Source: Candidatus Gottesmanbacteria bacterium (GTDB lineage: Bacteria > Patescibacteriota > Microgenomatia > UBA10105 > UBA927). From it: a stretch of DNA of 64,000 nucleotides. Position numbers and translations under genes: made by a program. The notes beneath the pieces are model-generated. The model did not search any database. It had not been told where the DNA came from and saw nothing but the letters and a program-made list of their open reading frames with translations. The stretch lies in NCBI GenBank assembly GCA_030679255.1, contig JAUXTO010000042.1, forward strand, positions 44,714 through 108,713. Direction: 5' to 3'. Below are positions 6,999 through 52,434 of the stretch, piece by piece; position 1 is the first letter of the stretch, and each line of letters starts with the position of its first letter.

Positions 6999-8515
6999 AC
7001 TTTGGCAGAGGGGGTACTATACTCCCTAGTCATCGCATATCCACGCCCTAATTCTGGTGTTCGAAATTTTATTCCTTCATAGACAAGTCCATTAGGGAAC
7101 ATCGAACACCCGATAGCCAGTTTGCCCTCAAGAGAGGCATCAATCCATACCCGTTTCATGTGAGAGAAGTAGTATTTGATAAAATTGACGCTGGTATCGA
7201 CATCAAGACGATCTATCTTTTTTTCACTAACAATACCCCGCTTCACTGCTAGCTGGGTTTCAAGATCATCTTTCATGGCGAGATATTCTTTGTCTGTATA
7301 TACACCTTTGGCGTTCTTGAGTCTCACTGTCCTCAACAATTCTTCAAGCTCTGCAATATCCCGGTGAACCTGATCCTCTGTATGGATGAGAAGGTTATTT
7401 TGAGCCTGCCACTTCTCGAGCACCATCTCTCCGAACCACTGCATATAGCCTTCGTCAAAAGTGATTCCATCAACAAGCTTGAGAAATGCTTCCTCTATAC
7501 CGTTCTCGCCGTCCTTACCATAGGAAATCACCTTATGTACGCCTCTTGTTGGACAGGCATAATACCCATATTTTTTGTATTTTCCCTTACTCCATGCGGA
7601 GGAGAGTTTTTTTCCACACTCACACCGGAGAATCCCCCTCAATGGGAAGTCCTCCCGTTGTTTCGCATATCGTTCTAGTTTTGATGGTCGCTTCCCTGTA
7701 AGTATCTCCCGGACACGGTAGAAGGTATCCAGGTCGATCATCGCCTCTTGCTGTCCGGTGGCTTCCCCATACTTCTGTGATACGAGAATACCTGCATAAA
7801 ACTTGTTAGAAAATACCCTGCTTGCTGATTGACGGAGAAACTTCTTGCACCGGCTGTCGTGTGTCAAGGTAAGCCCTAGTTTATTTATCTCTCTGGCTAC
7901 CTGAATCATGGAGAGTTTTTCCTGATCGACCCTATGCCACATAGTCTGAATGACTGGAAACCATGTCGGGTCTTTAACTGCAATGCTTTTTCCGTTCACT
8001 TTTTGCATTAGATATCCGATAGGAGGCTTTGAAGTTATATGTCCTTCGGTAAATCTTCTTTTAAGAGAGTTGGATACGTTCTGTGCCCTTTCCTCATTTT
8101 GATATTGATTGAATGATGCAAGGATCGTTTCGATCATTTTCTCTGCTGGTCTGTCGCCGGATGGTTCTGTAGTGGATATGAGACTGACGCCATGCTTTGC
8201 CATGAGTTCACGGATCACCAGGTAATCGAGTGTATTCCTATTAAGCCGTGAGAAGGCATAGACAATGATTGCGGATATATCGTTTTTGGGGTCTTTGACA
8301 AACGTGAGCATCTCCTGAAGTTGAGCCCTATCGGTCGTGGAAGCGCTAACTCCTTCTTCTCTGAATGTTTTGGCTACGATAAACCCCAATTGATCTGCCT
8401 TCTTTTGACACAGATCCTGCTGACTATCCAAAGAATAGCCATCAATTTGCTTATCACTGCTCACGCGGACATAAGTAACACAGTTTTTCATGCGAGTAGA
8501 TTTTGGGCAGCACAT
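6962..8515 (-). CDS. large serine recombinase (integrase); C-terminal tail overlaps tRNA-Lys 3' end; true start may be 8491 (MKNCVTYVRV)
   Basis: 517 aa; resolvase catalytic motif YVRVSSDKQ, recombinase domain, C-terminal CxxC...C zinc ribbon (CECGKK...YYAC). Confidence 0.85.
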   Translation of the reverse strand: MCCPKSTRMKNCVTYVRVSSDKQIDGYSLDSQQDLCQKKADQLGFIVAKTFREEGVSASTTDRAQLQEMLTFVKDPKNDISAIIVYAFSRLNRNTLDYLVIRELMAKHGVSLISTTEPSGDRPAEKMIETILASFNQYQNEERAQNVSNSLKRRFTEGHITSKPPIGYLMQKVNGKSIAVKDPTWFPVIQTMWHRVDQEKLSMIQVAREINKLGLTLTHDSRCKKFLRQSASRVFSNKFYAGILVSQKYGEATGQQEAMIDLDTFYRVREILTGKRPSKLERYAKQREDFPLRGILRCECGKKLSSAWSKGKYKKYGYYACPTRGVHKVISYGKDGENGIEEAFLKLVDGITFDEGYMQWFGEMVLEKWQAQNNLLIHTEDQVHRDIAELEELLRTVRLKNAKGVYTDKEYLAMKDDLETQLAVKRGIVSEKKIDRLDVDTSVNFIKYYFSHMKRVWIDASLEGKLAIGCSMFPNGLVYEGIKFRTPELGRGYAMTREYSTPSAKVGESAEIRTQNQ

Positions 8516-23556: not shown

Positions 23557-24300
23557 TTAGCTACCCTTTTTCCACTTTACAGAAGTAAGCAGGGGCGCAT
23601 ACATATCATCGTCAAGAGAAATTTCTAATGCTTGAATCTCTTTTTGGTTCGGCGGACGGCTCAGATATGATGCAAAAGGGAAATTGCGGATGAGAGCGAG
23701 GGGCGTCTGTTCATTTCCTTCGCCCATGACGCTGACCGCTGCGGCGGCCAGGCTATCGATGACACTGGCTTTCGTGGCATGCAGGTTTTTGCCAAAAATA
23801 TCCGGCGTCCCGATGTAATTTTTCAAAGGCTCGATACCGCACCAGGCAATCGACCGGCCCAGTGTGCCCCATTGGAGGGGATCAACGTGGGTATCCGTCA
23901 CGATGACGCCGATGTTTTTGAGATGAGATTTTTGCTGGACATGCGTCCAAATCATTGCCGCTGACTCAAAAGGGTTCCGTGGCCAGAGAATGAAATATCC
24001 ATTGCCATTGCTTTCGTCGATGCCGGAATTGGCGACAAGTTTATGGTTTTTGATTGTGATCGTCATACCATACGTTTCTGAAAGCGGTAAATCCAGGTAG
24101 CGATCCGCTTCCTGTTTGATAAGTGTGAGCTTGTCCGTCTGTCCGTCATTTTTGACGAGCGACTGCTCGCATATGCTCACGATTTTGGATGTGACGGCCA
24201 GGATGTCTCCTTCATGAAGTTTTGGAAGATACTGGTCCAGTATTGCCAATAGCTCATCGCCTGGTAAGATGGGTTTGGTTTTGATGGCGGTCACTTCCAT
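23557..24300 (-). CDS. CofE-like gamma-glutamyl ligase (F420-0:L-glutamate ligase family) protein
   Basis: 247 aa; LPGDELLAILDQYLPKLHEGDILAVTSKIVSICE pattern of CofE/F420 ligase family. Confidence 0.6.
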   Translation of the reverse strand: MEVTAIKTKPILPGDELLAILDQYLPKLHEGDILAVTSKIVSICEQSLVKNDGQTDKLTLIKQEADRYLDLPLSETYGMTITIKNHKLVANSGIDESNGNGYFILWPRNPFESAAMIWTHVQQKSHLKNIGVIVTDTHVDPLQWGTLGRSIAWCGIEPLKNYIGTPDIFGKNLHATKASVIDSLAAAAVSVMGEGNEQTPLALIRNFPFASYLSRPPNQKEIQALEISLDDDMYAPLLTSVKWKKGS

Positions 24301-24336: not shown

Positions 24337-25170
24337 ATGAAGGATAAATATTCCGCCATATGGGTTTCTCATTCCTCAATCGGTGACTATCTCAAATGTC
24401 CGCGGGCGTATTATTTGCGTAATGTCTACCGTGATCCAAAAACGAATCATAAAATTTCTCTTATGGCGCCTGCCTTGGCTCTTGGGCAAATAGTCCACGA
24501 AGTAATTGAATCGCTCTCGACCCTCCCGGTAGAAGAACGGTTTACCCAACGCCTCATTGACCGATACGCCAAAAGTTGGGAGAAAGTCAGCGGGGAGCGC
24601 GGGGGATTTGCCTCAGCGGAGGAAGAAGAAAAATTCCGTATCCGGGGAGAAGAAATGATTGCCCGGGTGGTCGATCATCCCGGACCCCTCACCCATAAAA
24701 CCATCAAGATCCGTCAGGAGCTCCCGTACTTTTGGCTTTCGGAGGAAGACAATATTATTCTCTGCGGTAAGATCGATTGGCTAGAGTATCTAGAGGAGAG
24801 TGATAGTGTCCGCATCGTGGACTTTAAAACGGGTAAGTTTGATGAAGAACCCGACTCGCTGCAGCTCCCGATTTATTATCTCCTGGCCTCCCGCTGTCAG
24901 ACGAAGCCGGTCACCGGTATAAGCTACTGGTACCTCAATCGTGATCCGGAGCCGGTTGCCATGGATCTGCCGGACAAAGATGACGCTATCACCCGTATCC
25001 TTGAGTATGCCAAACGGATTGCTCTCGCCCGTAAACTTGGACGGTTTGTTTGTAAAGATAAAGACGGATGTCGCGCATGCCGTCCTCTTGAGGCAATTGT
25101 GTCAGGAAAAGCAAAACTTGTGGGGGTCAATGATTTTGGACAGGACCTCTATGTTCTTTTATCCGCGTGA
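24337..25170 (+). CDS. PD-(D/E)xK nuclease superfamily protein, Cas4/RecB-like with Cys cluster
   Basis: 277 aa; N-terminal CPRAYYL Cys plus C-terminal CKDKDGCRAC; D...IVDFKTGK nuclease motif. Confidence 0.6.
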   Translation: MKDKYSAIWVSHSSIGDYLKCPRAYYLRNVYRDPKTNHKISLMAPALALGQIVHEVIESLSTLPVEERFTQRLIDRYAKSWEKVSGERGGFASAEEEEKFRIRGEEMIARVVDHPGPLTHKTIKIRQELPYFWLSEEDNIILCGKIDWLEYLEESDSVRIVDFKTGKFDEEPDSLQLPIYYLLASRCQTKPVTGISYWYLNRDPEPVAMDLPDKDDAITRILEYAKRIALARKLGRFVCKDKDGCRACRPLEAIVSGKAKLVGVNDFGQDLYVLLSA

Positions 25171-33559: not shown

Positions 33560-33602
33560 ATTCTACGCCCCCATTTTTCATAAATGAAGAAGGAAAAAGC
33601 CT

Positions 33603-33636
33603 ATCACAAAATTATGCACGTGCATAATTTTGTGAT
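33603..33636. promoter_or_regulatory. 34-bp perfect palindrome (candidate operator) in tdk/orf84 divergent region
   Basis: ATCACAAAATTATGCAC|GTGCATAATTTTGTGAT, 44 nt upstream of tdk start. Confidence 0.5.
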
Positions 33637-33823
33637 GATATGGTTTGATGGGATTGACGCGACAGGCATTCGGGTATATTTTTAATAGTGATAGATTAAT
33701 TTAGATACGAAAGGTTCATATGCCAGGTAGTAGATTTTCGATATTTTTCGATATGAAAAATGTTAATTTTGTTAAAAATACCTTACTAACAATACAAAAC
33801 ATAGTTATCTGAGTTTATGCATC

Positions 33824-33853: not shown

Positions 33854-34108
33854 ATGGCGGAAACTATCGATGAACAGGTTTCGGTAAATTTATTATTTAA
33901 CCATATTAAGCGGTCGGCTGCTCCGACGTCTCTTTACTGGCGGGGGCGGCGGTATACGATCACGAGCGTCGGACTGCATCACACCACGCGGGAAGGGCGG
34001 ACGCTCCTCCATATTTTTTCCGTAACGGACGGAACAACGGCTTTTAAGCTGGAGCTTAATTCAGAAACGCTTGGGTGGAGGCTATTGGAGATAGACGCTC
34101 AAGCATAA
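33854..34108 (+). CDS. hypothetical protein upstream of Y-family polymerase
   Basis: 84-aa ORF co-oriented with downstream polymerase. Confidence 0.4.
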   Translation: MAETIDEQVSVNLLFNHIKRSAAPTSLYWRGRRYTITSVGLHHTTREGRTLLHIFSVTDGTTAFKLELNSETLGWRLLEIDAQA

Positions 34109-34244
34109 GCACCAAATTCCAATATTCAAGCATCAAATAAATCACAAGCATCAAATGAAAATAAACAAGAAGTAATTCGTGTTGTTTATATATTAGTACT
34201 TGTGTTCGTTTGTTTGGTGCTTGGCACTTGATGCTTGGAATTTC
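34105..34244. repeat. dispersed imperfect-palindromic intergenic repeat, copy A
   Basis: words CCAAATTCCAA / CAAGCATCAA / TTGGTGCTTGGCACTTGATGCTTGGAATTT shared with copies at 39650 and 47818; ends at start codon. Confidence 0.5.
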
Positions 34245-35689: not shown

Positions 35690-35830
35690 CTCACTTCATA
35701 GCCGTCCAGCAACCGACCCCGAGCTTGTCGAAGGTCACGGTGCTCCCATGAGCCCCCGCAATAGGCGGGGAATGATAGGCCCCATAGGGAAACAAAAAAC
35801 TCTCCTTAGGGAGAGTTTTTTCGTATTGAA
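35690..35830 (+). promoter_or_regulatory. structured GC-rich leader with intrinsic terminator (35794-35821) upstream of metK; riboswitch-like, class not assignable
   Basis: stems GACGGGCTA/TAGCCGTC and CCCCGC-aatag-GCGGGG; terminator AACTCTCC-ttag-GGAGAGTT+T6 ending 35 nt before metK ATG. Confidence 0.4.
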
Positions 35831-35855: not shown

Positions 35856-36959
35856 ATGAAAACTTTTTTTACCTCTGAGTCGGTGGCTTCGGGCCATCCT
35901 GATAAAATTTGTGATCAGATATCCGATGCGATTGTAGACGCAGCGATAACCGTTGATCCCCAGTCACGCGTCGCGGTAGAAACGCTCGTGACCACCAATC
36001 GGATTGTTTTAGCGGGAGAAGTCACCTGTTCCAAGCGGTTGCCGTATGAATCGATTGCTCGTCGCGTCATCCATTCACTTGGGTACACTACTGGTATCTA
36101 TAATTTTTCGCATCATTCGCCGATGTCTATCTATATCCATGAGCAATCTCCGGATATTGCCCAAGGGGTTGACACCGGCGGCGCGGGTGATCAGGGCATG
36201 ATGTTTGGCTATGCATGCCGGGAAACGCCGGAGCTTATGCCGCTGCCTATTATCCTCGCTCATCGACTCGTTGAACGTATGGACGAGGCGCGTGAAAATA
36301 AGACCTTGGCGTTTTTGCGTCCTGATGGAAAAAGTGAAGTAAAAGTTGCCTATGAAAAAGGTAAACCTATTAGCGTCGAGCATGTGGTGTTAGCCGTCCC
36401 GCACGATCCCAAAGTGACAAACGAGGAGGTTAAGGGCATGTTGATCGCTCAGGTGATCAAGCCCGTGATGAAACAATATGGACTGGCGATGCTGAAGGAA
36501 AAAGATGTCATCGTCAATGGCACCGGTAAGTGGGAAATAGGCGGTCCGGCTTCCGATACCGGAGTCACGGGAAGGAAAATAATTGTTGATACATACGGGG
36601 CCTATGCGCGCCACGGTGGTGGATGTTTTTCCGGGAAAGATCCGACGAAGGTTGACCGGAGCGCGGCGTACGCGTGCCGGTACATCGCCAAAAATGTCGT
36701 TGCGGCGGGCCTTTCTGACCGCGCGGAAGTGCGGGTGGCATACGTGATCGGGCATCGGGAACCGATCGCCAAATCCGTCGAATGCTTTGGGACAGAGAAA
36801 AAATCCATCAAGGCTGTGGAGCAATTTGCCTGGAAGCTTTTGGATTTGTCCGTTCCCGGAATCCTAGAAGGACTATCTCTGCGGCAGCCGATTTACCAGA
36901 AGACCGCCCGCTACGGCCATTTCGGACGGGATGGATTTCCATGGGAAGTAGTACTGTAG
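35856..36959 (+). CDS. metK: S-adenosylmethionine synthetase
   Basis: FTSESVASGHPDKICDQISDAIVDA and GGGAFSGKDPTKVDRS motifs; start trimmed to MKTFFTSE. Confidence 0.9.
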   Translation: MKTFFTSESVASGHPDKICDQISDAIVDAAITVDPQSRVAVETLVTTNRIVLAGEVTCSKRLPYESIARRVIHSLGYTTGIYNFSHHSPMSIYIHEQSPDIAQGVDTGGAGDQGMMFGYACRETPELMPLPIILAHRLVERMDEARENKTLAFLRPDGKSEVKVAYEKGKPISVEHVVLAVPHDPKVTNEEVKGMLIAQVIKPVMKQYGLAMLKEKDVIVNGTGKWEIGGPASDTGVTGRKIIVDTYGAYARHGGGCFSGKDPTKVDRSAAYACRYIAKNVVAAGLSDRAEVRVAYVIGHREPIAKSVECFGTEKKSIKAVEQFAWKLLDLSVPGILEGLSLRQPIYQKTARYGHFGRDGFPWEVVL

Positions 36960-39173: not shown

Positions 39174-39653
39174 ATGGAAGTAGAAAATGCCCCCGATGTC
39201 ACCAAAATTATGCGTCAGATTCTCAAGCGGACACCGTTTGAGCATGTGAAAGCAGATCAGATAACCTGTATGCGCAGTACCGGTGCCACAAGCCGGGCCT
39301 ACGCACGCATATGGAGTTTTCCCAAAATTTGGCAGAAAGCACTCGCGCACCCTCCTCATTACATCATTGAAGTTCTTGCGCATCACTTTGACAAACTCAG
39401 GGATGACGATAAAATCCGCACGATCATCCATGAGCTCATGCACATTCCGAAGAATTTTTCCGGAGCATTGGTTCCCCATCATGGGAGATACCATCGGATA
39501 GACAGAAGGACGGTAGAGAAATTGTTTCAAGTGTACGGTGTAAATTCTCAGCCAAAGGCTGATCAGCCTTTGGCTGACAAATCACAAGCTTCAAGCACCA
39601 AGCAAACGACGAAAACACCAATAAATAAAATCCGAAACTTTCTTAATTTGTAA
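39174..39653 (+). CDS. putative zinc metallopeptidase (HExxH)
   Basis: 159 aa; IIHELMH motif. Confidence 0.45.
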   Translation: MEVENAPDVTKIMRQILKRTPFEHVKADQITCMRSTGATSRAYARIWSFPKIWQKALAHPPHYIIEVLAHHFDKLRDDDKIRTIIHELMHIPKNFSGALVPHHGRYHRIDRRTVEKLFQVYGVNSQPKADQPLADKSQASSTKQTTKTPINKIRNFLNL

Positions 39654-39702
39654 TTCGTTTAGAATTTGTTTGGAATTTGGTACTTGTTGCTTGGAATTTA
39701 TG
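39650..39702. repeat. dispersed intergenic repeat, copy B (right-arm only)
   Basis: GTAATTCGTTTAGAATTTGTTTGGAATTTGGTACTTGTTGCTTGGAATTT ending at holA ATG. Confidence 0.45.
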
Positions 39703-44158: not shown

Positions 44159-46453
44159 ATGCTACCCAAATTTGTTGTTTGGTTTAACGAAGTAGACAAG
44201 GAAGATATTCCTCTTGTGGGCGGCAAGGGGGCAAATTTAGGCGAGATGACCAAGGCGGGGTTTCCGGTGCCGGGAGGATTCATTGTCACCTCTGCGGCAT
44301 ATAAACATTTTCTCGACGTGACCCATTTGCGGTCGAAAATCGAATCAGCACTGCATAATTTGGATGTCAGTGACAGCAAAAGACTCGACATGGTGTCTCA
44401 AGCTGTCCGCGAGCTTATCACCGGCTCCGAATTTCCCCGCGAAATTGCCAATGAAGTGATTACTGCCTATTTCAAGCTCGATGAAGGATTAGTCAAGCAC
44501 GCTATGGTTGCCGTACGGTCATCGGCAACCGCTGAGGATCTACCCGGCGCATCATTTGCCGGTCAACAGGAAACGTTTCTCAATGTGTATGGGGAGGCCA
44601 ATCTCATTGAAAAGATTAAAGAAGCCTGGGCATCGCTCTTTACTTCCCGTGCTATTTTTTACCGGGCGACAAATAAATTTGATCACTTCAGAGTCGCGAT
44701 AGCTATCCCCGTACAACGCATGATTGAATCGGCCGCCTCCGGCATCATGTTTACGATTGATCCAGTGACGAATGATAAGAGCGTCATTGTCATTGAAGCG
44801 ATCCATGGATTGGGTGAAATGATCGTGCAAGGAGCCGTCACCCCGGACCACTACGAAGTGGATAAGGCTACGTTTGCGATCAAAATGAAAACCGTCAAAA
44901 CACAGGAAAAAAAGATGGTGAAGAAGGGAAATGGGAATGAAATTAAAATTATCAGTAAAAAAGATGGTTCGAAACAAAAAATTAGCGATGCGCACATTGT
45001 CGCTCTTGCCAAAATTGCCAAAAAGCTTGAAGAGCATTATTTCTTTCCGCAGGACAGTGAATGGGCGATCGAAAAGGACAAGATTTACATCGTGCAAACC
45101 CGTCCGGTGACGACGACGGGGAAACAGTCGTCAGTCGTCAGTCGTCAGTCTTCAGACAGTCTGATAGCTGATAGCAGAAAGCTGACAGCTTTATTAAAAG
45201 GAGACCCTGCGAGCCCCGGTATGGCCAGCGGTCCGGTGAAAATACTTTCTTCTCCCAAAGAGATCCATAAAGTGATGGCGGGAGATGTGTTGGTTGCTGA
45301 GATGACCAATCCGGATTATGTCCCCGCTATGCGTAAAGCAGTTGCTATCCTCACTGAACGCGGAGGAAGGACTTCCCACGCGGCGATCGTATCGCGGGAA
45401 CTGGGAATTCCGGCCGTCGTCGGCGCGAAAGGAGCAAAAAAGCTCCTGAAAGACGGTATGATCATCACGGTCAATGGAAGTACGGGAGAGGTTTACCGCG
45501 GAGCGGTACGATCAAATACTACAAATACTACCAATACTACCAACGAAAAAAATTCGAAAATTAAAACGGCGACGAAGGTATATGTCAATCTCGCCGAACC
45601 CAGTCGCGCCAAAGAAGTCTCAAAATTACATGTGGATGGGGTTGGGCTACTTCGGGCTGAATTTATGATGGCGGGTATCGGGACACACCCCAAAAAGTTT
45701 ATTGAAGACAAAAAACAAGCGCTGTTTGTATCCCAGTTGTCCGAGGGTATGGGGACTATTTGTGAAGCGTTTTCCCCCAGGCCGGTCATCTACCGGGCGT
45801 CGGACTTTCGGACCAATGAATTCCGTAATCTCAAAGGCGGCAAAGCATATGAACCCGCTGAGGATAATCCGATGTTGGGATTCCGCGGGGCAGCCCGCTA
45901 TATCGCTGACCCAAGGGTTTTTGAACTTGAACTGGAGGCCATCAAGGTTGTGCGGAACAAAAGAGGCTTCAAAAATTTACATCTCATGATTCCGTTTGTC
46001 CGGTCTCCCAAAGAAATGCTCGAGGTCAAGCAAATTGTGGCAGGGAATGGTCTTATCCGCTCATCGAACTTTAAATTGTGGATGATGGTCGAAATTCCGA
46101 CCAACGTTATCCTCATCGAGGATTATCTGGACATCGGACTCGATGGAATATCCTTTGGATCGAATGATTTGACCATGCTTATTTTGGGGACGGACCGGGA
46201 TAATAGCGAAGTTGCCCATGACTTCCGGGAAACGGATCCGGCTGTCATGTGGGCATTTGAACGCGTCATAAAGGCTTGTGTCAAACGGGGCGTGACGACT
46301 TCTATGTGCGGACAGGCGCCGTCCGATTATCCGGATCTTGTGGAAAAGCTTGTTGAGTGGGGAGCGACCAGTGTCTCGGTGAATATCGATAGCGTTGATA
46401 ATGTCCGCCGGACGATTGCAGAAGCGGAAAAGAAGAGAGTCAATAAAGTCTGA
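44159..46453 (+). CDS. ppsA: phosphoenolpyruvate synthase (pyruvate, water dikinase); start trimmed to MLPKFVVWF
   Basis: LVGGKGANLGEM ATP-grasp, GGRTSHAAIVSRELGIPAVVG phospho-His domain, PEP-utilising C-terminal domain. Confidence 0.85.
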   Translation: MLPKFVVWFNEVDKEDIPLVGGKGANLGEMTKAGFPVPGGFIVTSAAYKHFLDVTHLRSKIESALHNLDVSDSKRLDMVSQAVRELITGSEFPREIANEVITAYFKLDEGLVKHAMVAVRSSATAEDLPGASFAGQQETFLNVYGEANLIEKIKEAWASLFTSRAIFYRATNKFDHFRVAIAIPVQRMIESAASGIMFTIDPVTNDKSVIVIEAIHGLGEMIVQGAVTPDHYEVDKATFAIKMKTVKTQEKKMVKKGNGNEIKIISKKDGSKQKISDAHIVALAKIAKKLEEHYFFPQDSEWAIEKDKIYIVQTRPVTTTGKQSSVVSRQSSDSLIADSRKLTALLKGDPASPGMASGPVKILSSPKEIHKVMAGDVLVAEMTNPDYVPAMRKAVAILTERGGRTSHAAIVSRELGIPAVVGAKGAKKLLKDGMIITVNGSTGEVYRGAVRSNTTNTTNTTNEKNSKIKTATKVYVNLAEPSRAKEVSKLHVDGVGLLRAEFMMAGIGTHPKKFIEDKKQALFVSQLSEGMGTICEAFSPRPVIYRASDFRTNEFRNLKGGKAYEPAEDNPMLGFRGAARYIADPRVFELELEAIKVVRNKRGFKNLHLMIPFVRSPKEMLEVKQIVAGNGLIRSSNFKLWMMVEIPTNVILIEDYLDIGLDGISFGSNDLTMLILGTDRDNSEVAHDFRETDPAVMWAFERVIKACVKRGVTTSMCGQAPSDYPDLVEKLVEWGATSVSVNIDSVDNVRRTIAEAEKKRVNKV
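45125..45185. repeat. coding tandem repeat (CAGTCGT)x3+ within ppsA linker
   Basis: cagtcgtcagtcgtcagtcgtcagtc...ctgatagctgatagc encoding SSVVSRQSSDSLIADS. Confidence 0.6.
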
Positions 46454-46522
46454 AAGTCTATAAAGTCTATAAAGTCTATAAAGTCTAATGTTCTTTTTCG
46501 ACTTTCGACTTTCGACTTTAGG
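46446..46522. repeat. tandem repeats (AAAGTCTAT)x4 followed by complementary (CGACTTT)x3 immediately after ppsA stop; can fold as long hairpin (terminator-like)
   Basis: aaagtctataaagtctataaagtctataaagtcta...cgactttcgactttcgacttt. Confidence 0.6.
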
Positions 46523-46532
46523 GACTTATTGT

Positions 46533-47804
46533 ATGTCTACCAAAATTTACACCATCATTGCGCGGGAAATTCTTGATTCCCGTGGTAATCCGACGATAGA
46601 AACTATGGTAATCCTCGAAAGCGGATACCGTGGCGTTGCGGCGGTTCCTGCCGGGACATCACTCGGAAAATATGAAGCGAAGGAGCTGCGCGACGGCGAT
46701 GGCGCACGCTATTATGGCATGGGTGTATTAAAGGCGGTCAATGCGGTCAACACGACGATCGTATCGAAGCTGCGTGGTATGGACGCTCTCGACCAAGCGG
46801 GGATTGACCAGGCGATGATTGTCCTGGACGGTACGGAAGATAAATCTAAACTTGGGGCCAATAGCATCCTCAGTGTCTCGCTGGGTGTCGCTGCTAGTGC
46901 GGCCGCCGCGTCGCGCATCCCTCTCTACCGGTACCTGAATACACTCTTTACTCCGCTTGTGCCGACGACCCTTGCAAAAATTCCCACGCCGACGGTCAAT
47001 GTCATAAACGGCGGCAAGCACGGCGCCGGTAATTTAGATTTTCAGGAATTTCAGGTGATACCGGCGAGTAATCGTAGTTTCACGGATGCGCTCCGGCTTG
47101 CCGTGGAAGTCTACCAAAAACTCAAAGGGATACTCCAATACCGTAATGCCTCGACTGCTGTGGGATATGAAGGCGGGTTTGCGCCAAATCTCTATACCAA
47201 TATCGATGCGATGCAGCTTCTTCAGGAAGCGGTGCGCGCCACACCATACCGGTTTGGTGTCGACGTTTTTTTTGGGCTCGATGTAGCGTCCAGTCATTTT
47301 AAAACAGCCCGTGGGTACCAGATAAAAGATAAGGAGACTCCGATGAGTCCCAAGGATTTTGTTACTTATCTGGCAGATCTCCATAAAAATTACCGCCTGC
47401 TTATTCTTGAAGACGCGCTTGATGAAGATGATTGGGAGGGCTGGATGGAACTCACCGCCCGGTTTGGTGCTGAGGTGATGATCGTCGGAGATGATTTGCT
47501 TGCGACGAACCCCAAACGGCTCGAGAAGGCGATTGCCCAAAAAGCATGTACCACGATACTCCTCAAACCCAATCAAATCGGCACACTCACCGAATTTTTC
47601 CGTGTGGTCGCTATGGCCAAAAAAAATCATATTCAAACCATTGTTTCCCATAGGAGCGGTGAGACCAATGATGCGTTTATTGCCGATCTCGGCGTTGCCG
47701 TACAGGCCGACTATGTCAAATTCGGCGGCCCCACTCGTGGAGAGAGAGTAGCCAAATATAACCGTTTGTTGCAGATAGAAGCAGAGCTATTTTCACAAAA
47801 ATAA
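46533..47804 (+). CDS. eno: enolase; start trimmed to MSTKIYTII
   Basis: IIAREILDSRGNPTIE N-terminus and enolase C-terminal motifs. Confidence 0.9.
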   Translation: MSTKIYTIIAREILDSRGNPTIETMVILESGYRGVAAVPAGTSLGKYEAKELRDGDGARYYGMGVLKAVNAVNTTIVSKLRGMDALDQAGIDQAMIVLDGTEDKSKLGANSILSVSLGVAASAAAASRIPLYRYLNTLFTPLVPTTLAKIPTPTVNVINGGKHGAGNLDFQEFQVIPASNRSFTDALRLAVEVYQKLKGILQYRNASTAVGYEGGFAPNLYTNIDAMQLLQEAVRATPYRFGVDVFFGLDVASSHFKTARGYQIKDKETPMSPKDFVTYLADLHKNYRLLILEDALDEDDWEGWMELTARFGAEVMIVGDDLLATNPKRLEKAIAQKACTTILLKPNQIGTLTEFFRVVAMAKKNHIQTIVSHRSGETNDAFIADLGVAVQADYVKFGGPTRGERVAKYNRLLQIEAELFSQK

Positions 47805-47817
47805 GCACATGTGTGTA

Positions 47818-47945
47818 TAAATTCCAAGCATCAAGCGCCAAGCACCAAACAAACGAATACAAGCACCAATATACAAACGTTTAGAATTTGGAATTTTGAT
47901 ATTGGAATTTGTTTGGTAATTGGAATTTGGTACTTGATGCTTTTT
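47818..47945. repeat. dispersed imperfect-palindromic intergenic repeat, copy C
   Basis: AAATTCCAAGCATCAAGCGCCAAGCACCAAACAAACGAA... / ...TTTGTTTGGTAATTGGAATTTGGTACTTGATGCTT arms. Confidence 0.5.
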
Positions 47946-47947
47946 TT

Positions 47948-49588
47948 ATGGTCAAACCAGTTGTCCTCATTGTTTTAGATGGTTGGGGTCTCGCGCCCCC
48001 CGGGCCCGGGAACGCCATTAGTCTCGCGCATCTTTCGGCGATGCCCTTTCTTTGGCACACCTACCCCCATACACAACTTGCCGCATCCGGCGAAGCAGTC
48101 GGCCTACCGTACGGCGAAGATGGGAATACAGAAACCGGACACATCAATATCGGAGCCGGACGCACCGTTTATCAGGATCTTCCGCGTATTTCTATGGCGG
48201 TCAAAGACGGAAGTTTTTTCACCAATGATGCACTCCTTGCCGCCGTATCCCACGCGCGGACTAATCACTCTGCTATTCATCTTATGGGAGTGGTGTCTGA
48301 CGGCGGGGTCCATGCAAGCCGCGAGCATGTGTATGCAATTCTCGAGCTCATTAAGAAGCAGCAGTGCGAGAGTCCCGTCTATATCCATGTATTTACGGAT
48401 GGCAGGGACGCTTCTCCTACATCAGGCGAGCGGTTTGTCGGTGAATTAGAAGACCGGATACATGCCCTTGGGGTGGGTCAGATTGCGACCATCATCGGCC
48501 GGTATTTTGCGATGGACCGTGACCGTCGGTGGGACCGGACGGAGCGGGCGTATCGAGCGCTTACCGAAATAGACGGAGGAACGATTGCCGTGTCGGCAAC
48601 CATTGCAATCCGGGATTCCTATGCGCGTCATGTGACCGATGAATTTATCGAGCCGGTCATTATCGCAGATACGTCCGGCAATCCATTACCGAGAATTCAG
48701 GATAATGATGCGGTGATTTGTTTTAATTTCCGTATTGACCGGCCGCGCCAATTGACGCGCGCACTCGTGCTTCCGAACTTTGAGACGGTAGAGCCCTCGA
48801 CCGCGTTTGATCCTTATGCGGTCAAATATTATCACCGCCATGTGGTCCTTCAAGATGACCGTGCTCATCCGTTTACCCGGTCTGTCGTCCGGAAAAACCT
48901 GTTCGTGGTCACCATGACTCAATACGAACCAAATCTTCCTGTGAGTGTCGCATTTCCGCCTCAAAAGGTATTTGCCCCACTGGGAAGTGTATTTGCTGAC
49001 CATAAAATTCGACAGCTGCGCGTCTCAGAAACGGAAAAGGAGCGCTTTGTCACCTACTATTTTAATGGTATGCGTGAAGTCGCCTACGAGAGGGAGGACC
49101 GGCTTATCATTCCATCAGTGAACGTCCCCACGTATGATTTGAAGCCGGAGATGGCAGCTCTCGAGCTCACCGAACACGTGTTACACCGTATCGTCATTGG
49201 GGTATATGGATTTATCCTCATTAATTTTGCAAATCCTGATATGGTTGCCCATACCGGAAATATCGCGGCTTCGGTCAAGGCATGCGAAGTAACCGATTCC
49301 TGTCTGGGATCTATCGTCAAGGCAGTTATGGCTCAAGACGGCACTTGCGTCATCACCGCGGATCATGGTAACGTGGAAGAGATGCTTGGGGTCGGTGGAG
49401 AAATGGACACCGAGCATTCGACGTTTTCCGTTCCTTTCATTATGGTACATTCCTCGTTACAGGGGTATCCACAAGTGCTTTCTACTGGCAAATTGGGAGA
49501 TATAGCTCCCACCATCCTCTCTCACATGCATCTCCCTATTCCTCCGGAAATGACCGGTAAAAATTTATTACAGGATTTTTCTTTGTAA
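47948..49588 (+). CDS. gpmI: 2,3-bisphosphoglycerate-independent phosphoglycerate mutase; start trimmed to MVKPVV
   Basis: VLIVLDGWG N-terminus, iPGM Mn-binding pattern. Confidence 0.85.
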   Translation: MVKPVVLIVLDGWGLAPPGPGNAISLAHLSAMPFLWHTYPHTQLAASGEAVGLPYGEDGNTETGHINIGAGRTVYQDLPRISMAVKDGSFFTNDALLAAVSHARTNHSAIHLMGVVSDGGVHASREHVYAILELIKKQQCESPVYIHVFTDGRDASPTSGERFVGELEDRIHALGVGQIATIIGRYFAMDRDRRWDRTERAYRALTEIDGGTIAVSATIAIRDSYARHVTDEFIEPVIIADTSGNPLPRIQDNDAVICFNFRIDRPRQLTRALVLPNFETVEPSTAFDPYAVKYYHRHVVLQDDRAHPFTRSVVRKNLFVVTMTQYEPNLPVSVAFPPQKVFAPLGSVFADHKIRQLRVSETEKERFVTYYFNGMREVAYEREDRLIIPSVNVPTYDLKPEMAALELTEHVLHRIVIGVYGFILINFANPDMVAHTGNIAASVKACEVTDSCLGSIVKAVMAQDGTCVITADHGNVEEMLGVGGEMDTEHSTFSVPFIMVHSSLQGYPQVLSTGKLGDIAPTILSHMHLPIPPEMTGKNLLQDFSL

Positions 49589-49600
49589 GAAAGGAACAGT

Positions 49601-50707
49601 ATGAAAACAACTATCTCTGTCATCAAAGCAGATACCGGTTCCGTCGGAGGACATAATAGGCCAAGCAACGCAATGCTTGCCAAAGCACAGGAACAAGTCG
49701 ATATGGCGGTCCAAAAGGGTTTATTGAGCGATGCCCGTATTACCTTTACCGGCGACGATATTGCCCTCCTCATGATTCACGGCAAAGGCGTAGATAATCC
49801 GGATATTCATAAACTCGCCTGGGATACGTTTGTCGCAACGACGGCGATAGCTAAGTCTCAGGGACTTTACGGGGCGGGACAGGATCTCCTCAAAGATGCA
49901 TTTTCCGGCAACGTGCGGGGCATGGGACCGGGGAGCGCGGAAATTGAACTTGAGGAGCGACCAGCTGAACCATTTGTCGTGTTTGCGGCAGACAAATGCG
50001 GTCCCGGTGTTTTTAATTACCCGCTCTTCGAAGCATTTGCCAATCCGTATCACAACGCAGGGCTCCTCCTCGCGCCGGAGATGAAAGATGGATTTACGTT
50101 CACGATCATGGATGTCAATAATGTTGATGCCGATCGGGTGATTACCCTTAAAGTTCCGTCGGATTATTATGATATCTGTACGCTTCTGCGCGATCCTAAT
50201 CATTATGTCATCGAGAGCGTCACGGAAAACGCGAGCGGGTTGCAGGCGGCAGCGTCATCGACAAGCAGACTTCATAATATATCCGGGAAATATGTAGGTA
50301 AGGATGATCCGGTGGCAATCGTGCGGACCCAAAAGACCTTTCCATCGACCGGAGAGATTCTTTCTCCGTGGGCCCTCGCACACTTTACGCTAGGAGATAA
50401 CCGTGGGTCCCATCATGTCGCCGTCATGCCGGTCAAGCAAAATAGTATAATTTCATTTTTTGACGGACCGACGATCGTATCGGCCGCCGGGTACTGTGTC
50501 CATGAGGGGAAACTCACGGAGGCCGTGGATCTTTTTGATCAGCCATTTTGGGATCTGATCCGGACAAAAGCGTCGGAAAAGACCCTATCTATCCGGGCGC
50601 AAGGATTTTACGGACCTGCTATGGCAGGGATGGATGAGCTCGAGTATACCGGAGTCGTCCAAAATCTCAAACGGTTGGGTGAGAAATTTGTCATACGACA
50701 GAAATGA
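49601..50707 (+). CDS. fbp: fructose-1,6-bisphosphate aldolase/phosphatase (archaeal-type class V FBPase)
   Basis: MKTTISVIKADTGSVGGH N-terminus characteristic of FBP aldolase/phosphatase. Confidence 0.75.
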   Translation: MKTTISVIKADTGSVGGHNRPSNAMLAKAQEQVDMAVQKGLLSDARITFTGDDIALLMIHGKGVDNPDIHKLAWDTFVATTAIAKSQGLYGAGQDLLKDAFSGNVRGMGPGSAEIELEERPAEPFVVFAADKCGPGVFNYPLFEAFANPYHNAGLLLAPEMKDGFTFTIMDVNNVDADRVITLKVPSDYYDICTLLRDPNHYVIESVTENASGLQAAASSTSRLHNISGKYVGKDDPVAIVRTQKTFPSTGEILSPWALAHFTLGDNRGSHHVAVMPVKQNSIISFFDGPTIVSAAGYCVHEGKLTEAVDLFDQPFWDLIRTKASEKTLSIRAQGFYGPAMAGMDELEYTGVVQNLKRLGEKFVIRQK

Positions 50708-52434
50708 AATCAGACGTGTACACAAAGCACCCGGACCCCAAGAAGCCCGCTAATCTCGATGACTATGATCGGGTCTATCGTTCGTTTGACTGGAAACAGG
50801 CCCGAAAGGAAATAGATTGGTTTGACGGGGTAACGATGAATGCCGCCTATAACGCGATAGACCGGCATACGCAGACCTGGCGGAAAAATAAAATTGCCCT
50901 CTACTGGGAAGACGAAGACGGTTCCACAAAACAATACACATTCGAACAACTTTCTCTGTTGTCCAATAAAATGGGTAACATCCTCAAGGATTTTGGAGTC
51001 ACCCGTGGACAAAGGGTTTTTATTTTCCTTCCCCGTGTACCGGAACTCTATATTAGTTTCTTAGGGATACTCAAGATCGGAGCAATAGCGGGTACGCTTT
51101 TTAGTGCTTTTCAGGAACAGGCCCTTGCAGACCGGCTAGGCAATAGCGATGCGGAAGTGGTGATCACGAACACTGAGCTTAAAAAACGGATTGACAAAGT
51201 CCGGAGTAAACTCCCTGCGCTCAAACATATTATTACTATAGATAGCCCGGACTTTGCTACATCCATGGAACACGCAAGTGATGAACTGCATATTGCCCAC
51301 ATGGATCCGGATGAGTATGCGTTCATGCTCTATACGAGTGGCACGACCGGTAAACCGAAAGGTGTCGTTCACGTCCACAGAGCAATCCTCCAGGAGCATA
51401 TGACCGCTAAGTGGGTTTTGGATCTGCGGGACGACGATACCTATTGGTGCACTGCTGATCCGGGTTGGGTGACGGGCATTGCCTATGAAATACTCGGCAG
51501 CTGGTCATGCGGAGTGACCGCGGTCGTTTTTGCCGGACGGTTTGATCCAAAACGGTGGTATCAACTATTAGATAAATACAAGGTCACGGTTTGGTATACG
51601 GCCCCCACGGCTATCCGCATGCTGATGGCCGCAGGGAGCGCTCTTGTCAAAGAATTCGATCTCTCGGCACTGCGTCATATGTGTTCCGTCGGAGAGCCGC
51701 TTAATCCCGAAGCCATCACCTGGGCGATCAAGACGTTTGATAAGCCGTTCCACGACACGTGGTGGCAGACGGAGACGGGTGCGATCTCTATCGCCAATTT
51801 TCCCTGCCTGGATATCAAAATTGGCTCCATGGGCAAACCCGTTCCGGGTATACACGCGGCAATCGTCGATGATACTGGGCGCGAGTGTAAACCCAACGAA
51901 GAAGGACATATTGCCATCAAGCCCAAATGGCCGTCCATGATGCATACCATTTGGAGAAGACCCCAGAAATACAAAAGTTATTTTGAACACGGGTGGTACA
52001 TCAGTGGCGATCGAGGGATGCGGGACGCAGACGGATACTTCTGGTTTATCGGGAGGGCCGATGATGTCATCAAAACTGCCGGAGAACGTGTGGGCCCGTT
52101 TGAAGTGGAATCCGCGCTTGTGGCTCACCCTGGAGTGGTAGAGGCAGGAGTCATCGGTAAGCCCGATGCCATGCGGGGGGAAATCATTAAAGCGTTTGTG
52201 GTACTTACGGAGAGTCAAAAGTCAAAAGTCAAAAGTCAAAAGTCTGCTGATGCATTTAAGGAGGAGCTTTCGCAGTATGTGAAAAAGCATCTGGCTGGAC
52301 ATTCCTACCCCCGTGAGATAGAATTCATCGATAAGTTGCCCAAAACCCGTTCCGGCAAGATCATGCGCCGTATTTTGAAAGCCAAAGAAATGGGCTTGCC
52401 GATAGGGGATACGAGCACATTAGAGGAGTATTGA
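50704..52434 (+). CDS. acs: AMP-forming acyl/acetyl-CoA synthetase
   Basis: YTSGTTGKPKGV AMP-binding motif; contains coding (GTCAAAA)x4 repeat. Confidence 0.8.
   Translation: MKSDVYTKHPDPKKPANLDDYDRVYRSFDWKQARKEIDWFDGVTMNAAYNAIDRHTQTWRKNKIALYWEDEDGSTKQYTFEQLSLLSNKMGNILKDFGVTRGQRVFIFLPRVPELYISFLGILKIGAIAGTLFSAFQEQALADRLGNSDAEVVITNTELKKRIDKVRSKLPALKHIITIDSPDFATSMEHASDELHIAHMDPDEYAFMLYTSGTTGKPKGVVHVHRAILQEHMTAKWVLDLRDDDTYWCTADPGWVTGIAYEILGSWSCGVTAVVFAGRFDPKRWYQLLDKYKVTVWYTAPTAIRMLMAAGSALVKEFDLSALRHMCSVGEPLNPEAITWAIKTFDKPFHDTWWQTETGAISIANFPCLDIKIGSMGKPVPGIHAAIVDDTGRECKPNEEGHIAIKPKWPSMMHTIWRRPQKYKSYFEHGWYISGDRGMRDADGYFWFIGRADDVIKTAGERVGPFEVESALVAHPGVVEAGVIGKPDAMRGEIIKAFVVLTESQKSKVKSQKSADAFKEELSQYVKKHLAGHSYPREIEFIDKLPKTRSGKIMRRILKAKEMGLPIGDTSTLEEY
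52213..52244. repeat. coding tandem repeat (AGTCAAA)x4 in acs
   Basis: agtcaaaagtcaaaagtcaaaagtcaaaagtct encoding SQKSKVKSQKS. Confidence 0.6.

Follow-up and report, generated by a model that had tools for sequence, protein, structure and literature searches.

The junction between eno and gpmI in a 64,000-nt stretch of a Candidatus Gottesmanbacteria genome (contig JAUXTO010000042.1; the whole stretch analysed is referred to here as the window) is filled by an imperfect inverted repeat, copy C, which an initial annotation had put forward as a possible regulatory hairpin. We conclude that copy C is probably one copy of a foldback repeat family resembling repetitive extragenic palindromic (REP) sequences and miniature inverted-repeat transposable elements (MITEs), that its RNA hairpin is a by-product, and that it is no regulator dedicated to eno and gpmI. 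It is an ordinary family member that lies in the eno-gpmI junction. We found no prior description of the family, whose arms consist of degenerate 7-nt units, in Rfam or in the searchable literature, and we regard it as a variation, with an unusually wide distribution, on the theme of intergenic palindromic repeats.

The inverted repeat reported between the two genes is indeed present: it covers bases 47819-47942, is imperfect, and lies between the eno stop codon (47802-47804) and the gpmI ATG at 47948. As reported, its arms are approximate reverse complements, the C/A-rich left arm and the T/G-rich right arm meeting at AAACGTTT, which is also the centre of copy B in the window and of an element in a related genome (locus L121). 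The reported end, 2 nt before the gpmI ATG, holds as well, position 47945 falling within a T7 run (47941-47947). The left arm reads, in units, AAATTCC, AAGCATC, AAGCGCC, AAGCACC, AAACAAA, CGAATAC, AAGCACC, AATATAC and AAACG, and the right arm ends in TTTGGAA, TTTGTTT, GGTAATT and GGAATTT. A period of 7 nt was called at 47824-47848 and 47880-47930 by the tandem-repeat program TRF, with 7.7 copies of the consensus TTTGGAA in the right arm, and autocorrelation also peaks at lag 7. These arrays are degenerate, with 65-77% matches, and are arranged as an inverted pair. The insert makes up the 143-nt spacer between the eno stop and gpmI (47948-49588; TIGR01307 in NCBIfam, 585 bits, matching from residue 3; N-termini of relatives M(K)KPVVLIVLDGWG), and the GCACATGTGTGTAT that precedes it forms a small hairpin of its own in predicted folds.

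The initial annotation had called copy C one copy of a repeat, and this is confirmed within the window and far beyond it. We defined the family by an outer 23-nt motif, AAATTCCAAGCANCAAGNNCCAA, with 20 specified bases, which matches copy C exactly at 47819-47841 and which is found in the window three times exactly and once with three mismatches, against 0.00 expected. The window holds three copies: A before dinB, B before holA and C before gpmI. As reverse complements, the C left arm and the A right arm agree at 55 of 60 positions (92%), copy A being inverted relative to C and 13.6 kb away; all five differences are transitions, and the partner arms are much less alike. We also ran a profile built from 52 arms of other genomes over the window (nhmmer). 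Strong matches (E 4e-9 to 5e-5) were obtained for both arms of C and for the right arms of A and B; for copy C these were the left arm, with E 5e-5, and the right arm, with E 2e-6 at 47942-47877 on the minus strand, an arm without the seed motif. Weaker matches fell on copy A's left arm (E 0.1) and on the centre of copy C, and the profile found nothing outside copies A-C within the 64-kb window.

We searched for exact matches to the motif in one genome per species, a total of 1.2e12 positions in which about one match is expected, and identified at least 119 motif stretches in these species-representative genomes. Statistics on arms, spacing, polarity, hosts and context given here and below are among the matches listed. 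Foldback look-alikes occur in more than ten bacterial phyla. Hosts from the candidate phyla radiation (CPR) include Saccharibacteria, Kaiserbacteria, Falkowbacteria, Microgenomates, Peribacteria and Parcubacteria; further hosts are Omnitrophota, Aminicenantes/Acidobacteriota, Planctomycetota, Verrucomicrobiota, Desulfobacterales, Nitrospirae, Elusimicrobia, Cloacimonadota and Chloroflexi, together with Bacteroidota that include cultured isolates (Salinimicrobium and Planktosalinus; Flavobacteriaceae) and one complete chromosome. Some foreign hosts carry several family loci per genome.

The foreign arms share much more than the motif by which they were found. Of about 500 intervals between successive CAA trinucleotides, 327 measure 7 nt. 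The units seen most often are AAGCACC, AAATTCC, AAATCCC, AAGCTCC and AATGACC, and the arms have the general form (CCAAnnn)n and, on the complementary side, (nnnTTGG)n. Independently of the motif, CAAAYAAA recurs at about 27 nt (45 of 124, versus 3.3 in shuffles) and AATGAYC at about 46 nt (28 versus 1.5), and the AAACG arm end peaks at 61-62 nt across the family. Since these motif-independent inner features recur at fixed distances, the family arm of about 60-65 nt is homologous or strongly constrained, and not a random simple repeat. A complementary arm is found within 330 nt in 69 of 130 cases. Copy C shares the polarity of the family: its C/A arm is 5', its T/G arm is 3', and the junction lies near AAACG.

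Two further features of foreign loci stand apart from these statistics. In Aminicenantes-type loci (L025, L026, L027, L033, L092 and L111) the outer flank of the C/A arm is itself conserved but consists of other heptamers (ACGGnnn ...GTAAGACTA), and the family unit in that lineage is consequently longer than the arm as defined here. A second small G+C-rich hairpin motif, GTCACCCTGAGC...GTCGAAGGGTC, occurs in unrelated genomes (L002, L079, L120, L144 and L155), sometimes nested within heptamer foldbacks to give a mosaic like that of bacterial interspersed mosaic elements (BIMEs), and a look-alike of this hairpin is present in the window at 35716-35738.

Searches for a previously known origin or partner were negative. 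At gathering thresholds Rfam returned only tRNAs, both in the window and in 19 foreign loci; the best sub-threshold matches for the element were to plant miRNA-precursor models, at 25 bits where the cut-off is 120, and such similarity is generic to hairpins. Full-text literature searches with 16-17-nt arm strings returned no paper, and keyword searches on heptamer, palindromic, CPR or MITE repeats returned no description of the foldback element. A phage or plasmid origin was rejected, the motif being on only two viral contigs and BLAST giving no plasmid match. An associated gene was likewise rejected: all-against-all clustering of 781 neighbouring open reading frames (ORFs) revealed no recurrent family except generic ABC ATPases.

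The long hairpin predicted for the eno-gpmI transcript was also recovered. The RNA from 47805 to 47950 folds with -40.8 kcal/mol, as against -25.5 +/- 3.2 kcal/mol for 200 dinucleotide shuffles (z -4.7), none of which was as stable; for the opposite strand the value is -37.3 kcal/mol (z -3.9). The hairpin still forms when wider flanks are included, but z is then only -2.2. In the predicted fold a basal stem of 10 bp with four G-C pairs (47826-47835 / 47933-47942) is followed by U7, and the whole stem is about 55 bp long, AU-rich and rich in mismatches. The corresponding values are -40.7 kcal/mol (z -5.0) for copy A and -28.7 kcal/mol (z -2.3) for copy B, both of which terminate in GGAATTT and lack the T7 of copy C.

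This stability says little about copy C in particular. Between the C left arm and its own right arm the pairing energy is -37.8 kcal/mol; 45 right arms from unrelated genomes average -32.0 kcal/mol, and 14 of them form an equally or more stable duplex with the C left arm. Across the family, cognate duplexes average -42 kcal/mol and non-cognate duplexes -34 kcal/mol, with the ranks of cognate arms broadly spread. Specific co-adaptation of the two halves of a hairpin was rejected on these grounds, cognate arms pairing just slightly better than foreign ones. Because the difference is so small, the stability of the hairpin comes mostly from a shared vocabulary in an inverted arrangement; the pairing in copy C is due mostly to this family-wide vocabulary rather than to arm-to-arm matching within the copy.

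The history of the junction was followed in relatives. We collected 80 loci with gpmI relatives (51-80% identity) from groundwater and sediment metagenomes, some of them 0.1-um filtrates and some on contigs of about 0.85 Mb, and used 33 of these loci to examine the eno-gpmI junction. Exact-protein matches came only from contigs of run SRR13727518, in which copy C is unchanged. Synteny of eno and gpmI is kept across all 33 junctions, and in most of them the eno stop and the gpmI start adjoin or overlap, the clearest cases reading ATGA; hence copy C is a lineage-specific insertion. The few junctions with spacers hold short-repeat or palindromic inserts of other vocabularies: CGAAATC-type arms in L121, a (GCAATGTA)n hairpin in L139 and (TATTAGC)5 in L153. 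A tree of gpmI by identity gives ((L121,L122),W), where W is the window (85.7/79.7/78.0% amino-acid identity). The L121 junction is filled by an element with a perfect 24-bp outer stem (-40.5 kcal/mol, z -6.2), whereas the L122 junction is empty although its eno 3' end is 97.9% identical to that of L121. Given one filled and one empty junction beside near-identical eno 3' ends, the eno-gpmI junction has repeatedly and recently gained such elements, or lost them precisely. The same two loci are 97.9% identical at the eno 3' end and 79.5% identical in gpmI (nucleotide), which points to a recombination breakpoint at this element-bearing junction.

We compared the positions of hairpin-type family members with those of spacers in general. 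Thirty-six lie between co-directional genes, 13 between convergent and 6 between divergent genes, against a background of 243, 60 and 52 for adjacent gene pairs at the same loci, in which genes are crude longest-ORF calls. There is no depletion in divergent (terminator-like) or convergent (5'-untranslated region (UTR)- or promoter-like) spacers. The spacer classes occur at roughly background frequency, a pattern that neither a terminator nor a 5'-UTR element would be expected to show. Both the preceding stop and the following start lie at short distances from the elements, and these distances are broadly spread. The proposal of a dedicated eno-gpmI regulator is thus not borne out: most of the 33 related junctions lack the element, for which reason copy C is not a conserved regulator of the operon, and the family shows no context bias. 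The suggested terminator survives in part, in that a 10-bp basal stem is followed directly by U7, but copy C is not called by an intrinsic-terminator consensus scan and the family does not avoid other kinds of spacer. The U7 itself is found only in copy C; copies A and B and the L121 copy are without it.

Judged by how it behaves, the family resembles REP/MITE-type repeats that are selfish or near-neutral: it has several copies per genome, in both orientations, in any kind of intergenic spacer, with filled and empty sites among close relatives. Several observations weigh against this interpretation, beginning with the crude gene calls behind the spacer background. All four junction elements in the window and that of L121 end 0-6 nt before a start that has neither a Shine-Dalgarno (SD) sequence nor a -10 box, end positions that genome compactness may not fully explain and that could have to do with function. 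The arms keep a GC content of about 35% in host loci of 35 to 69% GC, and AT-rich arms together with a unit order conserved across phyla argue for some sequence constraint beyond selfish spread. Among 116 cases, 54 have the T/G arm on the 3' side of the C/A arm and one has it on the 5' side. Transition mismatches leave G.U pairs on the sense strand slightly more often than on the other (79 versus 54; z estimated at about 2.2), which hints at some RNA-level selection; this excess is absent from the window's own copies, and the evidence for selection on the hairpin itself is weak. A possible target-site duplication, AT or AAT, is seen at two junctions only and is inseparable from retention of the stop and start codons. 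Finally, no transposase or longer parent element was seen at the foreign loci listed. A long element with cargo was rejected: the partner arm is 37-280 nt away in 61 of the 67 cases that have one, and it is because of these short distances that no long parent element is visible.

A history consistent with the favoured reading, of a family repeat with a by-product hairpin, can be outlined. The element would have been inserted, or copied, into a junction at which the eno stop and the gpmI start ancestrally abutted or overlapped (ATGA). Co-transcription of eno and gpmI, assumed when the hairpin was first described, is very probable: the genes are on the same strand, they abut or overlap in relatives, and the element has no promoter-like site. 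We found no sigma-70-like site in 47800-47950, and so reject both a promoter within the element and a promoter for leaderless gpmI mRNA; no copy has a TATAAT-like sequence at -12 to -7 relative to the ATG. The genes that follow the junction elements (dinB, holA, eno and gpmI) have neither an SD sequence nor a TATAAT-like box. The element would thus be transcribed within a ppsA-eno-gpmI-fbp message and fold into a stem of about 55 bp, leaving some 21 unpaired nt after the eno stop and 5 before the gpmI AUG, about 26 in total. Because gpmI has no SD sequence and no promoter of its own, we invoke post-termination re-initiation, by which gpmI translation would continue with stop and start close in space. 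We propose that self-complementary inserts are tolerated at the overlapping junctions of this compact genome because folding would keep stop and start close. Two side effects can be envisaged: the U7 after the stem may cause partial termination, lowering gpmI relative to eno, and RNase III could cleave the long duplex, or the duplex could make the eno 3' end more stable. By analogy, RNase III could plausibly act on a duplex of about 55 bp.

The features that fit an inert repeat least well raise the possibility, which we hold only tentatively, that this cross-phylum foldback has a dedicated mechanism of its own. It might be a non-autonomous mobile element spread by a widely distributed enzyme or, as a variant, the product of directional, templated addition of C/A-rich repeats to DNA ends. 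Otherwise it might be an RNA or single-stranded DNA platform read by a universal protein with a 7-nt footprint, for example a cold-shock protein. In either case the polarity, the unit order and the AT-richness in hosts of 69% GC would be signatures of that mechanism.

We consider it unlikely that copy C has been selected as a cis-acting RNA, whether as an attenuator or partial terminator or as a site of RNase III processing or mRNA stability by which the eno and gpmI messages would be uncoupled. One variant would have cleavage at the base of the stem produce a near-leaderless gpmI message, in an organism that seemingly uses many leaderless starts. A stable hairpin whose 10-bp basal stem runs directly into U7 would suit such a role; the organism does use canonical hairpin-plus-T-run terminators (for example AAAAAACTCTCCTTAGGGAGAGTTTTTT at 35794-35823); gpmI lacks an SD sequence and a promoter while many genes of the window have a TATAAT-like box 6-8 nt before the ATG; and the ending of every junction hairpin 0-6 nt before an ATG, like the slight sense-strand G.U excess, points the same way. 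However, a selected signal is hard to reconcile with the absence of the element from the same junction in most of 33 relatives, with the lack of U7 in copies A, B and L121, and with a family that is not depleted in divergent or convergent spacers and occurs in both orientations relative to transcription. The arms, moreover, show no specific co-adaptation, and the terminator scan was negative.

A purely local origin, in which replication slippage expands 7-nt units and template switching makes the palindrome without any movement between loci, is in our view distinctly improbable. According to the part of PMC4679880 that cites Mrazek 2007, heptanucleotide repeats are the commonest long simple repeats in prokaryotes and are ascribed to polymerase slippage. 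That account fits the dominance of period 7 in the longer arrays of relatives, the ppsA-eno array described below, which begins in the last ppsA codons as if locally seeded, and the differences in array content or copy number between near-identical strains. It does not account for the 92% identity over 60 nt between the left arm of C and an arm of opposite orientation 13.6 kb away, nor for the match of both C arms to a profile from other phyla and the conserved unit order. Slippage followed by inversion should also give both polarities, but the observed ratio is 54:1.

More improbable again, and by analogy speculation, is that the arms are arrays of sites for a single-strand nucleic-acid-binding protein with a 7-nt footprint, cold-shock proteins being the best candidate; binding to the T/G arm would open the hairpin beside the start codon, and a shared specificity would explain the common vocabulary across phyla. 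Bacillus subtilis CspB binds a heptanucleotide with the consensus GTCTTTG/T, and earlier work reported the Y-box core ATTGG (PMC1904285). The strict 7-nt period, the T/G-rich arm always on the side facing downstream starts, the maintenance of arm composition in GC-rich hosts, and units such as GTCATTG, GTGCTTG and GACTTT(C), which resemble the CspB consensus, are all in keeping with such binding, and a comparable protein-binding proposal exists for TAACTGA repeats upstream of start codons (PMC4679880). ATTGG is, however, a minority unit, CTTGG and TTTGG being dominant; the likeness to the CspB consensus extends to just 5-6 of 7 positions in low-complexity sequence; and the conserved unit order and the copies in convergent spacers are left unexplained.

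A chance inverted repeat in low-complexity spacer DNA, which the AT-rich, low-complexity arms and the z of only -2.2 with wider flanks might bring to mind, can be dismissed, being refuted by the recurrence of the motif (4 versus 0.00 in the window; at least 119 versus about 1 in genomes), the fold z of -4.7 and the profile matches (E 2e-6 to 4e-9).

Among known systems, the closest likenesses to the repeat family favoured here are the Correia/nemis MITEs of Neisseria and the ERIC/IRU and RUP-like elements, which are likewise non-coding and multicopy, about 100-150 bp long with terminal inverted repeats, located next to or between genes in both orientations, with filled and empty sites and co-transcribed hairpins. 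Work by De Gregorio and colleagues reportedly established that nemis hairpins of Neisseria are RNase III substrates. The foldback shows terminal inverted repeats, small size, several copies per genome and filled and empty sites, as MITEs do. Unlike these elements, it has no demonstrated duplication of TA or another target and no parent insertion sequence was found; its arms are 55-70 nt of degenerate 7-nt subrepeats, loosely matched within a copy; and the family spans more than ten phyla, whereas elements of this type occupy one genus. REP, BIME and REPIN sequences, mobilised by REP-associated tyrosine transposases (RAYTs), are similarly short, imperfect intergenic palindromes found within operons, often mosaic with small palindromes, and are thought to affect mRNA stability or termination. 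In PMC3733652, REPs are 20-40 bp long, GC-rich, headed by GTAG or CGTC, and specific to a species or genus. The foldback differs in being AT-rich, three times longer and built on a 7-nt period, with no GTAG/CGTC head; measured against that REP/REPIN definition, copy C is not a 20-40 bp G+C-rich palindrome with such a head. No RAYT gene was seen near the foreign copies at the 119 loci listed.

Other comparisons concern single features. TAACTGA heptanucleotide repeats are intergenic and patchily distributed across phyla, in Beggiatoaceae, Cyanobacteria and Bacteroidetes (PMC4679880). Like these and the cyanobacterial heptanucleotide repeats, the foldback has a 7-nt period, is intergenic, often ends a few nt before a start codon and has a patchy cross-phylum spread; TAACTGA-type repeats are direct arrays of one near-perfect unit, whereas the foldback has degenerate CCAAnnn units in a set order with an inverted complementary array. 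The resemblance to bidirectional intrinsic terminators lies in being A-rich 5' and U-rich 3' on both strands, and in the stem followed by U7 in copy C. It differs from them in a stem of about 55 bp that is AU-rich and filled with mismatches, in the lack of a U-tract in most members, and in the presence of the family in divergent spacers and inside operons; copy C itself lies inside a conserved and mostly gap-free or overlapping junction, which is not the location expected of an intrinsic terminator. Eukaryotic Foldback (FB) transposons are kilobase-scale elements, some of which have a transposase. They share with the family only an architecture, long inverted terminal repeats made of short tandem subrepeats in variable number with a short or absent middle. 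Rickettsia palindromic elements are said, after Ogata and colleagues in 2000, to be about 100-150 bp long, to lie both in intergenic regions and in frame in permissive parts of proteins, and to be restricted to Rickettsia. These too are palindromic repeats, and related heptamer arrays of the present clade also occur in ppsA linkers. The sequences are unrelated, and in-frame insertion is seen for the related heptamer arrays and not for the CCAA-type foldback.

The coordinates of copy C, its flanking signals and the other elements of the window are collected in Table 1.

Table 1. Repeat elements of the window and the gene boundaries that flank copy C.
Feature	Position	Strand	Basis
eno stop codon TAA	47802..47804	+	ORF 46488-47804; NCBIfam TIGR01060 eno, 509 bits
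14-nt non-repeat spacer GCACATGTGTGTAT, eno stop to element	47805..47818	+	Sequence
Copy C left arm, C/A-rich, degenerate heptamers	47819..47878	+	Sequence, 23-nt motif, profile match
Copy C centre of symmetry, palindrome AAACGTTT	47875..47882	.	Sequence
Copy C right arm, T/G-rich, (nnnTTGG)n	~47880..47942	+	TRF, autocorrelation, nhmmer
T7 run straight after basal stem, copy C alone	47941..47947	+	Sequence
gpmI start codon, without Shine-Dalgarno or -10 box upstream	47948..47950	+	TIGR01307, N-termini of relatives
Copy A, inverted relative to C, fills spacer before dinB ATG 34245	34100..34244	.	Repeat search, motif, profile
Copy B, adjoins holA ATG 39700	39579..39699	.	Repeat search, motif, profile (E 3.9e-9)
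ppsA-eno hairpin, other vocabulary: (ATAAAGTCT)4 ... (CGACTTT)3	46437..46527	.	Sequence, TRF, fold

Elements of this kind also affect the reading of neighbouring genes. The left arm of copy B is translated as the C-terminal tail of an upstream phage-metallopeptidase-like ORF (39174-39653, + strand), whose Pfam domain stops at residue 105 of 159 and whose tail is encoded by a perfect 30-nt palindrome (39541-39570) together with the C/A arm of copy B; the tail is probably an artefact or a consequence of the insertion of copy B. The hairpin between ppsA and eno, which folds with -31 kcal/mol (z -3.8), fills its junction, the first unit of the array overlapping the final ppsA codons and the last stopping 5 nt before an ATG at 46533. 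The ppsA-eno junction is compact or overlapping in most relatives (ATGA in L122), and for this reason we take 46533 (MSTKIYT) as the true eno start, which would make the ORF called from 46488 15 codons too long.

Short tandem repeats also encode both interdomain linkers of ppsA (window 45125-45190 and 45515-45543), for example (CAGTCGT)n, giving SVVSRQ, and (AATACTACC)3, giving NTTNTTNTT. Arrays lie in the ppsA linkers of relatives (L122 1439-1470, L124 1686-1703 and L134 1809-1842), and identical heptamers appear in different linkers across relatives. L134 and L135 are 99.1% identical overall but have entirely different ppsA linkers, and L182 and L185 differ by one 8-nt unit; judging from such pairs, 7-nt arrays appear to turn over rapidly in this clade. 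A perfect, in-frame (AGTCAAA)4.4-4.6 array is present at 52213-52244, inside an AMP-binding enzyme gene (50704-52434); the array recurs in L139 at 8389-8419, where gpmI identity is only 61%, and in rotated form in the L122 ppsA linker. The window further contains unrelated perfect or near-perfect palindromes, TATCACAAAATTATGCACGTGCATAATTTTGTGATG at 33602-33637 and TCAGCCAAAGGCTGATCAGCCTTTGGCTGA at 39541-39570. Public short-read contigs of the same organism start in repeats, L001 at window position 46456, inside the ppsA-eno repeat, and L203 at about 33610, in the 33602 palindrome; contigs that begin at these points suggest that the repeat elements break assemblies.

Two observations bear on gene expression elsewhere in the window. 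In many genes the ATG is preceded at 6-8 nt by a TATAAT-like hexamer and there is no SD sequence (for example those starting on the + strand at 24337, 31158 and 37050 and on the - strand at 24300 and 25611), and others have a strong SD sequence; the pattern suggests that leaderless mRNAs are frequent in this organism. Upstream of metK a sub-threshold match to the S-adenosylmethionine (SAM)-I riboswitch (RF00162, 35658-35781, + strand; 29.5 bits against a cut-off of 44.4, E 7e-5) is followed by the terminator AAAAAACTCTCCTTAGGGAGAGTTTTTT and then by the metK ATG at 35857 with an AAAGGAG SD sequence, and this is probably a divergent S-box leader.

Our analysis indicates that the hairpin at eno-gpmI should not be annotated as a riboregulator, and that it is a recent insertion into a formerly tightly coupled junction. 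Foldback elements mislead gene callers, as in the 15 extra codons of eno and the tail of about 50 residues that the metallopeptidase-like ORF gains through copy B, and they coincide with contig ends in public assemblies (L001 and L203). The eno-gpmI insert is a natural test case for how the coupling of translation persists when 143 nt are inserted between a stop and a start that overlapped, and for the family as a whole culturable carriers exist in Salinimicrobium and Planktosalinus. If a specific enzyme or binding protein lies behind the arm of about 60 nt, it would be a new and widespread piece of bacterial genome biology.

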